Assembly (NCBI GenBank): GCA_031409275.1
Contig: JANNXA010000055.1
Coordinates: 416,001 to 480,000, forward strand
Origin: Planctomycetota bacterium
GTDB lineage: Bacteria; Planctomycetota; B15-G4; SIAN01
Direction: 5' to 3'
Length of the DNA stretch: 64,000 nucleotides
In this document: positions 1,912-14,662 of the stretch, piece after piece
Position numbering within the stretch: the stretch's first letter is position 1
Layout of the letters: each line of letters starts with the position of its first letter
Program-made: the position numbers and the translations under genes
The notes under the pieces: generated by a model
Databases searched by the model: none
Told to the model about the DNA's origin: nothing
The model's input: only the letters and a program-made list of their open reading frames with translations

Positions 1912-2556
1912 TCAGGCGACCTCAGGTGCACGCGGCAGCTGCGGCGGCTCGAAGCGCCCGACGAACGCGAGCAGCGTCAGGCTGACCGCGAAGACGACGT
2001 GCGTCGACAACGCGACCAGCACCGGGACTTCGCGCACGATCCAGTCGCCGCCAAAGAGCATCGGCTGCAGCCACGACAGGATCCCGTAGTAGCCGACCAG
2101 CCAGAGGCCGATGCCAGCGGCAACCGCAAGACCGAGGCGCCGCCCGAGACGCGCCGTCGGGAAGAAGCGCTGGCCGATGACATGGAGCGCCGCGCCGAGC
2201 GCCATTCCGGTCGCGAGGTAGAGCAGCACGCCCGTCGACAGCGCGAAACCGTCCTCACTCGTCAGCGCTCGCTCACGCAACGGGAAGGTGAGGTAGACCT
2301 TGATCAGTTGCAGCGGATGCTTGCCGACCAGCAGCGCTCCCACGATGTTGAACAACAGGCTCGCGCCCGCCGCCACGAGTCCGAGGATGCTGCCCACCAC
2401 GACGTGAAAGGCGAGATAGAAGCGCTCCGGCCACCATCCCGCCGCCGCGGCCGGGGCCTGCAGGCTCTCGCGCAGCGCCGACAGACGCGCTTCGAGTGCG
2501 ATCAGCTCCGCTTCCGCCTGCGGTCGTGACGACGTCGACGCCCCTTGTGGTTCCAT
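1912..2556 (-). CDS. Multi-pass membrane protein of unknown function, first gene of the leftward cbb3-associated operon
   Basis: ATG 2556 (MEPQGAST). Short coiled-coil followed by about 4-5 TM segments; translationally coupled to the DsbD_2 gene. Confidence 0.75.
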   Translation of the reverse strand: MEPQGASTSSRPQAEAELIALEARLSALRESLQAPAAAAGWWPERFYLAFHVVVGSILGLVAAGASLLFNIVGALLVGKHPLQLIKVYLTFPLRERALTSEDGFALSTGVLLYLATGMALGAALHVIGQRFFPTARLGRRLGLAVAAGIGLWLVGYYGILSWLQPMLFGGDWIVREVPVLVALSTHVVFAVSLTLLAFVGRFEPPQLPRAPEVA

Positions 2557-2611
2557 CGCAGCTCTCCGTGTGGGCTTCTCGCCCTTCACTCGAATCGAGT
2601 CGCGCCACCTA

Positions 2612-2627
2612 TGCAACCTGCGGCCCG
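2612..2627 (-). promoter_or_regulatory. Putative sigma-54 -24/-12 promoter for the leftward operon
   Basis: Minus strand CGGGCCGCAGGTTGCA = GG-N10-GC with TTGCA, about 55 nt upstream of ATG 2556. The -24 box is imperfect. Confidence 0.55.
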
Positions 2628-2666
2628 TTGGCGCGTGCGCCGCCGCCATCGGAGCGGCAGTCGGTT

Positions 2667-12013: not shown

Positions 12014-13464
12014 TCCGCGGTGAGACGAGGCTCGACGCGGTCCGCGTCCTGATCGTCGACGACAACCGCGACTTCGCGGAGAACGTCGCGGGACTGGCGC
12101 AACTGCGCGGCCTCGATCCCACCGTCGTCTACGACCGCGCCAGCGCTCTGGCGATCGCCGCCACCGACTCCTTCGACATCGCCATCGTCGACCAGAAGCT
12201 CCCCGACGGCCGCGGCACCGAGTTGCTCGCCGAACTGCGCAACCTGATGCCCGATCTGGTGACCATGGTGGTCACCGCGTTCGTCTCGATCGAGAACTCG
12301 CTGGCCGCGCTGCGCGAAGGAGCGTTCGCGTTCGTTGGCAAGGACTGCGAGCCCAGCGAACTCGTCGAGACCATCGCTCGCGCGGCCGAGAACGCGCGCC
12401 TGCGCCGCGAGAATCGCGCGCTGCGCCAGCTTCATGAGGCGACGCTGCTCGCGATCCCCGACTTCTTGTTGCTGGTCGATCGCGCCGGCCTGGTCGAAAG
12501 CGTCAATCGCACCCACGCCGCGCTCTGTCCCGGCCCGCCGCAGCTCGCGATCGGCCGGCCGCTCGACGACATCGTCGCGCCTTTCGTGCGCGAGCAGAGT
12601 TCGCTGCTCGATTGGCTCGATCGAGTCCGCAGCGGGGCCGCGACCGCGGAACGAACCCTCGAATGCCCCGATGTTGCCGGCGTTCCGCTCATCGTCGGGC
12701 TGCGCGCAGTCGCGCTCGAGTCGGATTCCGAGCCGTTGGTGCTGCTGCGTGCCGTCGATCTCACGGAACGGATCTCGCTCGAGCGGCGCCTCTCCGAGTC
12801 CGAGCACCTCGCCGCGCTCGGCCGCCTGGTCTCCTCGATCGCGCACGACCTGCGCAACCCCTTGGCCGGCATTCGCGCGCTGACCCAGCTCCTGCGCCGC
12901 TCCGCCGGCGAGTCGCCGCGCGATGCCGAGAACCTCGACGAGATCGTCGGGCTTGCCGATCGCATGAACGCGACGCTCTCCGACCTGCTCGACTTCGCCC
13001 GTCCGGGTACGCGACGCGAACAGCCGCTGCAGCTTGCCGAGCTGCTGAGCGCCGTGGTGGTCGAAGCGCGTCGGTGGCCCGTCGCCAACGGTCACACGAT
13101 CGAACTCGACCTTGCTCCCAAGGCAGCCGTCGTACGCGGGGTGCGCGAGCGCGTCGAAGGGCTCTTCGCCAACCTGATCGACAACGCGCTGCAGGCCGCG
13201 CCCGTCGGCGGACACATCCGGCTGGCGCTCGACGTCGACTCGGCGGACGCCGAAATTGCCGTGGAGGACGACGGTCCTGGCATCGCCGCCGACGTGCTGC
13301 CGCGCCTGTTCCAGCCCTTCGTCACCACCAAGACGCGCGGTACCGGGCTTGGTCTTTCCATCGTGAAGAAGAACGTCGACGCGCTCGGCGGAACGGTGGT
13401 CGTCGACCGCTCGCCGAAACTCGGTGGCGCCCGCTTCCGCGTTCGCTTGCCGCTGCGGGCCTGA
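12010..13464 (+). CDS. Cytoplasmic hybrid kinase: REC - PAS-like - HisKA - HATPase
   Basis: VLIVDDN, IAIVDQKLPD, AHDLRNPL, NLIDNA, DDGPGI, GTGLGL. GTGA overlap with the activator; no TM. Confidence 0.92.
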   Translation: MIRGETRLDAVRVLIVDDNRDFAENVAGLAQLRGLDPTVVYDRASALAIAATDSFDIAIVDQKLPDGRGTELLAELRNLMPDLVTMVVTAFVSIENSLAALREGAFAFVGKDCEPSELVETIARAAENARLRRENRALRQLHEATLLAIPDFLLLVDRAGLVESVNRTHAALCPGPPQLAIGRPLDDIVAPFVREQSSLLDWLDRVRSGAATAERTLECPDVAGVPLIVGLRAVALESDSEPLVLLRAVDLTERISLERRLSESEHLAALGRLVSSIAHDLRNPLAGIRALTQLLRRSAGESPRDAENLDEIVGLADRMNATLSDLLDFARPGTRREQPLQLAELLSAVVVEARRWPVANGHTIELDLAPKAAVVRGVRERVEGLFANLIDNALQAAPVGGHIRLALDVDSADAEIAVEDDGPGIAADVLPRLFQPFVTTKTRGTGLGLSIVKKNVDALGGTVVVDRSPKLGGARFRVRLPLRA

Positions 13465-13489
13465 GCGCGCCGCAGCCGGCGCCGCGCCG

Positions 13490-14662
13490 TCAGGGCGTCA
13501 TCTGCGGCAGCAGGATGGTGAAGATCGTCCCCTTGCCGAGCGTCGAACTCACCGTGATGCGGCCGCCGTGCGCCGCGACGAGGTCGCGCGTGATCGAGAG
13601 GCCAAGCCCGGTGCCGATCGCTCGGGTGGTGAACAGCGGCTCGAAGATCCGCTCGCGATTCTCCGCGGCGATGCCCGGCCCGTCGTCCGAAACCACCAGC
13701 ACCACGCCGAGCGGATCGCGGCGCGCACGCATCGACACCTTGCCGCCGACCTTCTGCTCGCGAATCGCCTCGCACGCGTTGCGCAGCAGGTTCGCCAGCC
13801 CCTGCGCCAGCTGCGCCGGATCGGCGTGGACCGACGCATCCGGCGGATCGCAGCGCACTTCGACTTCGATGCCCTCGCACTCCTCGACCATTCCCCGCGC
13901 GTCCTCGAGCAGCGCCGCCAGCGCGACGGTGCGCAGCGCCGGCTGCTTGGTGCGCGCGAAGTCGAGCAGCTGCGAGGCGAGGCGAGCGGCCTGGCGCGAG
14001 CCGCGTTCGATGCGGCCGAGGTGCGTGACCAGGGCGGGGCGCGCCGGCCCCGTGTCGAGCTTCTCGAGTTCGCGGTGGAGCAGGTGCAGGCTGGTGTTGA
14101 TGACGCCGAGCGGGTTCTTCAATTCGTGGCTGACGCTTGCCGCAAGCTGCCCGAGCGTGCCGAGCCGCTCCGCTTGCCGGACGCGCGCCTGGTGCAGCTC
14201 GAGGTAGCTCTCCAGCATGATCGCGAGCTCGAGGTCGAGCACCTTGTTCAGCGCTGCGAGCAACGGCGCGAGCGGGACCTGCTGCGCGTGCGCCACTTCG
14301 ATGGCGAACTCGGTCAGCTGCGGGCGCATGCGTCCGATCGCGAGCAACCCGAAGCGCTGCGGAAGGCCGACCTCGACGTGGCGCTGGCCGATGCGGGAAC
14401 GCATCTCGAACCAGCGCAGGTCGTGCGGCCCGCCGATCATCGAGATCGCCCACTCGCGCAGCGACTGCTTCAAGCGCGCGAGCTGCGCGGCGTCGACCAG
14501 CACGGCCCGCGCCTCGTCATGGCGCTGGATCTCGGAGTAGAAGTCCTCGACCAGCGCGTCGAGCACCCGCGGCAGCGTCGGCAGCAGTCGCGCCAGCTCC
14601 GCCGAATCGGCTTCGCCAAAGCCGATGTAGCTGCGGATCTGCTCGAAGAAGGCGCGGTCCAT
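13490..14662 (-). CDS. Globin-coupled sensor histidine kinase (protoglobin-type haem domain + HisKA + HATPase; AfGcHK-like)
   Basis: YIGFGEAD, EDFY (distal Tyr42), RIGQRH (proximal His95), VGLPQ, NKVLDLELAIML, SHELKNPL, DDGPGI, GTGLGL. Confidence 0.92.
   Translation of the reverse strand: MDRAFFEQIRSYIGFGEADSAELARLLPTLPRVLDALVEDFYSEIQRHDEARAVLVDAAQLARLKQSLREWAISMIGGPHDLRWFEMRSRIGQRHVEVGLPQRFGLLAIGRMRPQLTEFAIEVAHAQQVPLAPLLAALNKVLDLELAIMLESYLELHQARVRQAERLGTLGQLAASVSHELKNPLGVINTSLHLLHRELEKLDTGPARPALVTHLGRIERGSRQAARLASQLLDFARTKQPALRTVALAALLEDARGMVEECEGIEVEVRCDPPDASVHADPAQLAQGLANLLRNACEAIREQKVGGKVSMRARRDPLGVVLVVSDDGPGIAAENRERIFEPLFTTRAIGTGLGLSITRDLVAAHGGRITVSSTLGKGTIFTILLPQMTP

Follow-up and report, generated by a model that had tools for sequence, protein, structure and literature searches.

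Which signal controls the oxidase operon at this locus of a planctomycete genome, and is the operon switched on when oxygen falls or when it appears? The window, that is, the whole stretch of 64,000 nucleotides (nt) analysed here, corresponds to G000:C55:416001-480000 of a Planctomycetota bacterium whose genome (G000; relatives are labelled G001 onward) has a size of 5.59 Mb and is 93% complete. It contains an operon for a divergent cbb3-like oxidase and genes for a sigma-54 activator, a hybrid histidine kinase and a kinase with a protoglobin sensor domain. In the FixLJ-FixK logic, a haem O2 sensor kinase turns a high-affinity oxidase on at low O2.

The initial annotation of the window proposed a wiring from the globin kinase to the receiver (REC) of the hybrid kinase, then to the activator and to sigma-54 promoters, possibly with a logic opposite to that of FixLJ. 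This wiring is well supported by synteny, by a receiver of the type found in NmpS of Myxococcus xanthus and by a conserved pair of predicted enhancer sites. On balance, we think it probable that the locus encodes an oxygen relay of the NmpRSU type with a replaced output stage, and that the oxidase operon would be on when O2 falls.

Comparison with Known Oxygen-Sensing Systems

The closest described system is NmpRSTU of M. xanthus (NmpU, MXAN_4246; NmpT, MXAN_4245; NmpS, MXAN_4244; NmpR, MXAN_4240; PMC6211767, PMC11841059). According to PMC6211767, the protoglobin kinase NmpU phosphorylates the receiver of the hybrid kinase NmpS and not NmpR, as demonstrated by pairwise phosphotransfer, and NmpS phosphorylates only NmpR; shared receiver specificity residues explain why NmpU transfers to NmpS and not to NmpR. 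The D59A variant of NmpS is more active, and phosphorylation of the receiver was proposed to switch the hybrid off (PMC6211767). NmpR binds paired GCGCA-N5-TGCGC sites and activates sigma-54 promoters (PMC11841059, PMC6211767). Its regulon includes a cbb3 operon, hemN-hemerythrin, a universal stress protein (USP) and a CBS gene (PMC11841059), and an NmpR-dependent promoter reporter increased 6.5-fold in hypoxia (PMC11841059, PMC6211767). Homologues of nmpSTU were previously noted in Planctomyces sp. SH-PL14 (PMC11841059, PMC6211767).

Because the relay from NmpU through NmpS to NmpR has already been described with a cbb3 output, novelty of the circuit as such was rejected. In particular, the phosphotransfer (PMC6211767) and the presence of the cbb3 operon in the NmpR regulon (PMC11841059) mean that a globin kinase already has a transcriptional output, so the present locus is not the first to provide a concrete one, as had been suggested for it. 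In the literature searched, no description of a planctomycete version of the relay or of the operator reported below was found, and the Nmp papers were the closest.

The two systems share a protoglobin kinase, a REC-first hybrid, an NtrC-like activator and sigma-54 promoters with two enhancer sites; in both, the known or predicted targets are a cbb3 oxidase with a P-type ATPase, hemerythrin, CBS and USP genes, and sites are also located at the regulator's own operon. An NmpU-type globin kinase with haem ligands, an NmpS-type receiver and a predicted regulon under sigma-54 are thus found here, whereas an NmpR-orthologous activator, GCGCA-N5-TGCGC pairs and the dual-receiver protein NmpT at the locus are lacking. 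The activator belongs to another clade and has another recognition helix, and the predicted site is CGGGAAA-N2-TTTCCCG, with starts 20-24 or 31-34 nt apart, instead of GCGCA-N5-TGCGC with gaps of 14-15 base pairs. The hybrid is coupled behind the activator and is convergent with the sensor, its kinase specificity residues are different, and in the closest family the target is a divergent oxidase. NmpT was found neither in the window nor in the relay loci of relatives, a stand-alone copy elsewhere in the genome not having been searched for. As judged from these sequences, the new part is a rewiring, in which an Nmp-type sensor and receiver are combined with a replaced activator and a predicted new DNA site.

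The globin kinase AfGcHK of Anaeromyxobacter sp. Fw109-5 is active in the Fe(III) form and with O2 or CO bound to Fe(II), and inactive as unliganded Fe(II) (PMC8697598). It has the same architecture of globin plus kinase, with distal Tyr and proximal His equivalently placed; its characterised partner is an NmpT-like dual receiver, whereas here the only matching receiver at the locus is that of the hybrid. FixL is inactive with O2 bound (PMC8697598), and the control of rhizobial cbb3 (fixNOQP) by FixLJ-FixK is named in PMC11841059. The predicted net logic is common to FixLJ and the present relay, namely a haem O2 sensor kinase and an oxidase on at low O2, but the relay would have a globin where FixL has a haem-PAS domain, would contain an additional kinase that inverts the signal, and would act through a sigma-54 activator rather than FixJ/FixK.

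Relay Proteins

Gene, domain and alignment data bear out the three regulators of the initial annotation: an activator with GAFTDA, a translationally coupled soluble REC-PAS kinase, and a convergent globin kinase with both Tyr and His. The start of the hybrid kinase overlaps the stop of the activator (GTGA), and the hybrid is without a transmembrane segment. Tyr42 and His95 of the globin kinase align with Tyr45 and His99 of AfGcHK (PDB 5ohe; E 2e-25 over the globin), whose distal and proximal roles are described in PMC8697598, and the two residues are invariant in 12/12 aligned globins. The closest globin-kinase loci, up to 74% identical, are from metagenome-assembled genomes of Planctomycetota, and the kinase domains of planctomycete and myxobacterial globin kinases form one clade (Shimodaira-Hasegawa (SH) support 96).

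In the receiver tree, the hybrid's domain is the sister group of the NmpS-like receivers of myxobacteria (SH 94, 121 columns); its Asp56, Thr89 and Lys111 are intact. Its helix 1 carries the motif DDN.D.AEN.A.L, compared with DD..DLAEN.AEI in NmpS-like receivers; the motif is also present in NmpT-like first receivers and is absent from the receiver of the activator. The hybrid is collinear with NmpS-like proteins over the whole length, with 31-34% identity. The PAS domain was rejected as a distinguishing mark of the hybrid, since five of the six myxobacterial hybrids scanned also carry one. Judging from these likenesses, the relay order of globin kinase, hybrid receiver and activator is very likely.

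Monophyly of the activator with myxobacterial globin-kinase-linked activators was rejected (approximately unbiased test, p-AU 2e-5; 33 rows thinned from 63) in a quick tree from which M. xanthus NmpR itself was left out, with the NmpR-like clade as a stand-in. The myxobacterial clade was taken as NmpR-like because of synteny and because 31 of the 62 loci from outside the planctomycetes have NmpR site pairs. The recognition helix reads HRDQVRYW in the activator and SVRKIQYK in the myxobacterial activators, and by these comparisons the activator is not an NmpR orthologue. The genome also encodes a paralogous activator (G000:C51:24824-26227; L121:4825-7412), whose recognition helix is almost the same and whose gene is oriented divergently from that of a PAS kinase; cross-talk is possible. 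By sequence likeness, neighbouring genes may encode a GH57 family enzyme and a galactose-1-phosphate uridylyltransferase.

Promoters and Predicted Operator

The genome contains rpoN. The bare pattern GG-N10-GC is too frequent to be informative (about 11 per kb per strand), so the assignment to sigma-54 is carried by the fuller consensus and by conservation. The pattern TGGCAC-N6-TGCW has only 13 occurrences in the genome, and in the box before the oxidase operon TGGCAC..TGC is invariant in 5/5 aligned genomes while the surrounding region has diverged; this box reads as a near-consensus sigma-54 promoter. The reverse box has a weak -24 half, and GG-N10-GC with TTGC is present in 5/5 genomes, so the check on conservation of the boxes that had been suggested came out positive on both sides. 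The statement that both cbb3 operons carry sigma-54 motifs holds for the motifs; the reverse operon itself is not an oxidase operon and encodes a 214-amino-acid protein, a DsbD_2 protein and an ABC transporter ATPase. A third box, before the activator gene, was overlooked initially and is kept in 5/5 genomes of the same genus.

Gibbs sampling on 16 promoters gave a palindrome with the consensus CGGGAAA-N2-TTTCCCG, which superseded an ATC-N4-GAT repeat previously regarded as an enhancer and now seen as part of the wider palindrome. The site matrix was made from 12 promoters, leaving out the window's own promoter and three weak ones. In G000, G001, G004 and G007, pairs of sites start at -91 and -59 from the -24 box within 2 nt, and in the window this pair lies centrally between the two divergent promoters; in a second family, the sites of a pair are 20-24 nt apart. 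Another pair follows the conserved third box and precedes the activator gene, which suggests feedback of unspecified sign, and the activator is likely to be autoregulated through this predicted pair.

In a genome-wide scan with a matrix made without the own genome, the oxidase promoter ranked 6th of 3675 sigma-54-like sites, and it ranked 5th with a matrix trained on the second family only; column-permuted matrices equalled the rank in 1/200 and 0/200 cases. Three of the top six hits precede correctly oriented genes (oxidase; CBS, on contig C51; hemerythrin, on contig C18), and the other three are inside predicted genes. Because the CBS and hemerythrin genes were chosen after the scan, their orthologues serve as the test: 8/8 have a sigma-54 box, which in one case contains two mismatches, and in 7/8 a pair scoring 11-18 bits lies 78-98 nt upstream of the box. 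As a control, eight of the nine f4 genomes that carry the same oxidase type and lack the relay were searched (G040 was left out), and box plus pair occurred in none of them within 650 nt of the first gene. Pairs above 20 bits were found in 18/29 planctomycete loci, which are partly training loci with several per genome, and in 0/62 others. NmpR site pairs occurred in 0/29 planctomycete loci, compared with the 31/62 other loci, and NmpR sites at the window promoters were ruled out, none being found there.

The targets predicted from boxes and site pairs are cbb3-type oxidases, hemerythrin, CBS, USP and Hsp20 genes. Hsp20 is typical of hypoxia and stress regulons. Control by FNR/FixK was rejected, because no match to HTH_Crp_2 (PF13545) exceeded the cut-off in the 93%-complete genome; cNMP-binding domains exist and were not examined further. 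The operator data make it highly probable that the relay activator drives these promoters.

Distribution among Relatives

A globin kinase was found in 16 of 40 relatives (cut-off 1e-40), and in 14 of these 16, across two families, the layout of activator and hybrid on one strand with a convergent globin kinase is kept; in G004, the junction of activator and hybrid falls within a contig gap. An oxidase operon adjoins the relay in five of the 14, being of the same type in G001 and G004 and a canonical fused ccoNO in G008, G026 and G034. Other neighbours of the relay are USP, Hsp20, CBS, acyl-CoA ligase and cytochrome b or multihaem genes. With a threshold of 1e-150 and only five candidates scored per genome, 9 of the 301 genomes sampled from the phylum contained the activator, eight of these belonging to the same taxonomic order as the present genome. 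The co-occurrence expected at first was therefore recovered for the three regulators, and the tie to this particular ccoN type did not extend beyond the closest family: nine f4 genomes carry the type and lack the relay, and in family f2 the relay goes with canonical ccoNO, so a general link to this ccoN type was rejected.

Several loci depart from the common layout. G009 has two globin kinases with single receivers. The myxobacterial loci L026, L028, L030, L032, L037, L042, L047, L053 and L075 each hold a pair of oppositely oriented globin kinases separated by about 7-10 kb. In G036 (L017:2292-3113), the layout is kept with activator and hybrid intact, and the convergent kinase retains only the last globin helix; if true, this relay would be without O2 input. 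In G003 (L004:10700-18500, C28), the activator has an in-frame stop, both kinases have frameshifts, and the oxidase operon is missing between a truncated gene for the 214-amino-acid protein and the gene for the 60-amino-acid protein; this damage represents either joint decay of sensor and target or assembly errors.

Two relatives, G018 and G006 (92% and 90% complete, respectively), have an activator 63-64% identical and the site pairs, and no globin match was found in either genome. Their activator clusters (L113:7095-10094 and L114:2462-10227, respectively) contain a PAS-PAS kinase and several USP genes, and that of G006 also holds CBS and FtsH. The first PAS domain of the G018 kinase resembles that of FixL (E 3e-23); it retains the proximal His and has Leu at the position of the distal Arg, and the PAS domain of G006 has the same motif as judged by eye. 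By sequence likeness, these two genomes thus pair the same activator with a FixL-like PAS kinase in place of the globin.

The Oxidase

Subunit I of the window oxidase scores 208 bits against TIGR00780, far under the cut-off of 583 for canonical ccoN, and is 26-30% identical to the canonical CcoN of relatives; the closest solved structures are PDB 3mk7, 6xkw and 9g6b (E 1e-47 to 1e-42). It keeps the six His ligands and the cross-link Tyr256 and, compared with canonical CcoN, carries His-Asp in place of His-Asn, Gln328 in place of a conserved Glu, and Gln338 in place of Asn. These three substitutions are present in 120/120 homologues aligned, and at least 2074 proteins match subunit I at 1e-100. 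With the six His, the helix-VII cross-link Tyr and a CcoO partner, the enzyme belongs to the C-family haem-copper reductases in the broad sense and shares CcoO and CcoI partners with the cbb3 oxidases. It departs from canonical cbb3 (ccoNOQP) in the low score, in His-Asp, Gln328 and Gln338, and in having a di-haem cytochrome upstream instead of ccoP, no separate ccoP being present within the operon.

The His-Asp/Gln type with an upstream di-haem cytochrome and no ccoP is a widespread C-family subtype, and a literature search on C-family subtypes gave nothing that obviously characterises it. A third subtype was observed in family f5 (L109, L110, L112), with His-Asn and with Gln at the conserved Glu (residues checked in L109); its genes lie downstream of putative Rieske and cytochrome b genes. 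The genome has two haem-copper subunit I genes, the window copy and one on C18 that matches COX1 far better and probably belongs to an A-family oxidase used at high O2.

Direction of the Response and Alternatives

Under the preferred reading, O2-bound globin kinase would autophosphorylate and then phosphorylate Asp56 of the hybrid receiver, holding the hybrid off. A fall in O2 would silence the globin kinase and leave the hybrid unphosphorylated; the hybrid would then autophosphorylate on His279 and transfer phosphate to the activator encoded beside it. Assembled as an oligomer on the 2681/2713 pair, the activator would open the sigma-54 promoters on either side, one for the oxidase and copper ATPase and the other for the accessory genes, together with the CBS and hemerythrin promoters elsewhere and, in relatives, those of USP, Hsp20 and canonical cbb3 operons. 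The net effect would be a double-negative control, in which O2 turns the globin kinase on and thereby the hybrid and the activator off, and low O2 releases them. We infer haem and O2 binding, both phosphotransfers, DNA binding and the sign, and by analogy with Nmp it is likely that the oxidase operon is on at low O2. The opposite logic of the initial annotation, with induction when O2 appears, is probably wrong, because phosphorylation of the hybrid was proposed as an off-switch in Nmp, where the unphosphorylated hybrid is more active and the NmpR promoter is up 6.5-fold in hypoxia.

The same wiring with the opposite sign, in which phosphorylation of the receiver activates the hybrid and the oxidase is induced when O2 appears, is unlikely and is the strongest of the alternatives. 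This type of globin kinase is active with O2, and the sign of Nmp may not apply here, given that the hybrid's kinase half and the activator are unlike their myxobacterial counterparts. However, the receiver and the linker behind it are NmpS-type, and the predicted cbb3, hemerythrin, CBS and USP targets match the NmpR regulon, which supports the low-O2 sign. The separate, higher-scoring COX1 subunit I on C18 also speaks against it, as does the pairing of the same activator with a FixL-like PAS kinase in G018 and G006, FixL being inactive with O2 (PMC8697598).

That the sigma-54 promoters are driven by another activator, most plausibly the C51 paralogue with its own PAS kinase, and that the relay acts in parallel or is a mere neighbour, is improbable. 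The genome has 19 sigma-54 activator domains, the paralogue has the same RDQVRYW helix and branches nearest to the relay activators in the tree, and an unrelated transporter separates the oxidase from the relay. Yet in the second family no activator other than the relay type passes 1e-130 and the same site pairs are present, pairs are also found at the relay activator's own gene, and neither a pair nor a suitable sigma-54 box was listed for the paralogue locus. Least probable is that the globin senses haem redox state, CO or NO and that the relay responds to redox or gas stress, with a little-understood C-family enzyme under its control: activity of AfGcHK as Fe(III) and Fe(II)-CO (PMC8697598) and the three invariant substitutions in subunit I would fit this, and the invariant distal Tyr, the cross-link Tyr of O2 reductases kept in the oxidase and the canonical cbb3 under the same control in the other family do not.

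Several points weigh against a low-oxygen relay with a replaced output stage. The hybrid kinase domain is in a separate clade, its monophyly with NmpS kinases being borderline (p-AU 0.029 under LG+G4 and 0.053 under C20), and its specificity residues after the phospho-His differ from those of NmpS; as these data do not establish a sister relationship to the NmpS kinases, a change of sign is conceivable as well. In PMC6211767, control of NmpS by receiver phosphorylation is proposed, with no direct demonstration in vitro. The shuffled control for motif discovery was made at width 14 only and gave a small margin (110 versus 100-103), clear pairs are present in only 10/16 promoters with three weak promoters excluded from training, and the two sites in the window are themselves weak (8.1 and 6.5 bits). 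One of the 19 activators has a nearly identical recognition helix. No ccoN match was found in five relay genomes (G002, G003, G015, G021 and G032; 78-93% complete). The support presented here comes from sequence comparison.

Features of the Window

The features of the locus are listed in Table 1. The DsbD_2 gene neighbours cco genes in relatives from three families. The gene for the 214-amino-acid protein, whose atlas matches are unnamed planctomycete clusters, is divergent from the oxidase genes in 4/4 family relatives having this oxidase, an arrangement seen in the closest family only. The SNF symporter and an 83-amino-acid partner lie between oxidase and relay in G000, G001 and G004 and adjoin the relay in G002; no site evidence of regulation was found for the symporter. 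The genes that precede the globin kinase in the same orientation (14670-17281) encode an enoyl-CoA hydratase, a phospholipid methyltransferase and a squalene/phytoene synthase-like protein; they are conserved in the genus and possibly co-transcribed with the kinase gene.

Table 1. Genes, promoter boxes and predicted activator sites at the locus (positions in the window)
Feature	Position	Strand	Details
ABC transporter ATPase, third gene of reverse accessory operon	193..1170	-	Pfam ABC_tran
DsbD_2 membrane protein, likely oxidase assembly accessory	1224..1931	-	Pfam PF13386, 115 bits
214-amino-acid membrane protein without Pfam family, first gene of reverse operon	1912..2556	-	
Sigma-54 -24/-12 box, reverse operon	2612..2627	-	GG 2626-2625, GC 2614-2613; predicted start ~2601
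Predicted activator site 1	2681..2696	.	8.1 bits; 91 nt before forward -24 box; same offset in G001, G004, G007
Predicted activator site 2	2713..2728	.	6.5 bits; 32 nt after site 1
Sigma-54 -24/-12 box, oxidase operon	2772..2787	+	TGGCAC-CGCAG-GTGCA; predicted start ~2798
Di-haem cytochrome c, likely electron donor replacing CcoP	2833..3633	+	PF13442/PF00034; two CxxCH
Divergent C-family (cbb3-like) oxidase subunit I, ccoN-like	3630..5075	+	Profile and structure matches
CcoO/FixO mono-haem subunit	5097..5735	+	Pfam FixO
109-amino-acid two-helix membrane protein, kept with this oxidase type	5732..6061	+	
CcoI-like heavy-metal P1B-type ATPase, likely copper delivery	6058..8148	+	CPC motif
60-amino-acid single-helix protein, last gene of oxidase operon	8145..8327	+	
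SNF-family sodium symporter, unrelated, between oxidase and regulator genes	8377..10271	-	
Third sigma-54 box, before activator gene	10427..10442	+	GG 10428-10429, GC 10440-10441
Pair of predicted activator sites	10500..10538	.	9.8 + 10.5 bits, 23 nt apart, downstream of third box
Sigma-54 activator, REC-AAA+-HTH (helix-turn-helix)	10559..12013	+	GAFTDA
Soluble REC-PAS-HisKA-HATPase hybrid kinase	12010..13464	+	Asp56, Thr89, Lys111, His279
Protoglobin-HisKA-HATPase kinase, convergent; AfGcHK/NmpU homologue	13490..14662	-	Tyr42, His95

Biological Meaning

We give about even chances to a broader proposal, namely that this planctomycete order has a low-O2 regulon of its own, based on an undescribed clade of sigma-54 activators and on tandem CGGGAAA-N2-TTTCCCG sites. 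Haem sensors of opposite polarity may have been plugged into it, either a globin kinase with an inverting hybrid or a FixL-like PAS kinase directly, and the regulon would have converged on the NmpR gene set with different cbb3-type oxidases in each lineage. The comparison indicates that the Nmp oxygen relay is modular: the sensor and inverter move between phyla, the activator and DNA site are replaced, and like targets are reached again. As a three-protein system without NmpT at the locus, it offers a setting in which to examine the inverter step, which is still unproven in vitro. For an uncultured lineage, the analysis also yields an operator, a set of promoters and a regulon of low-oxygen adaptation that are open to testing.

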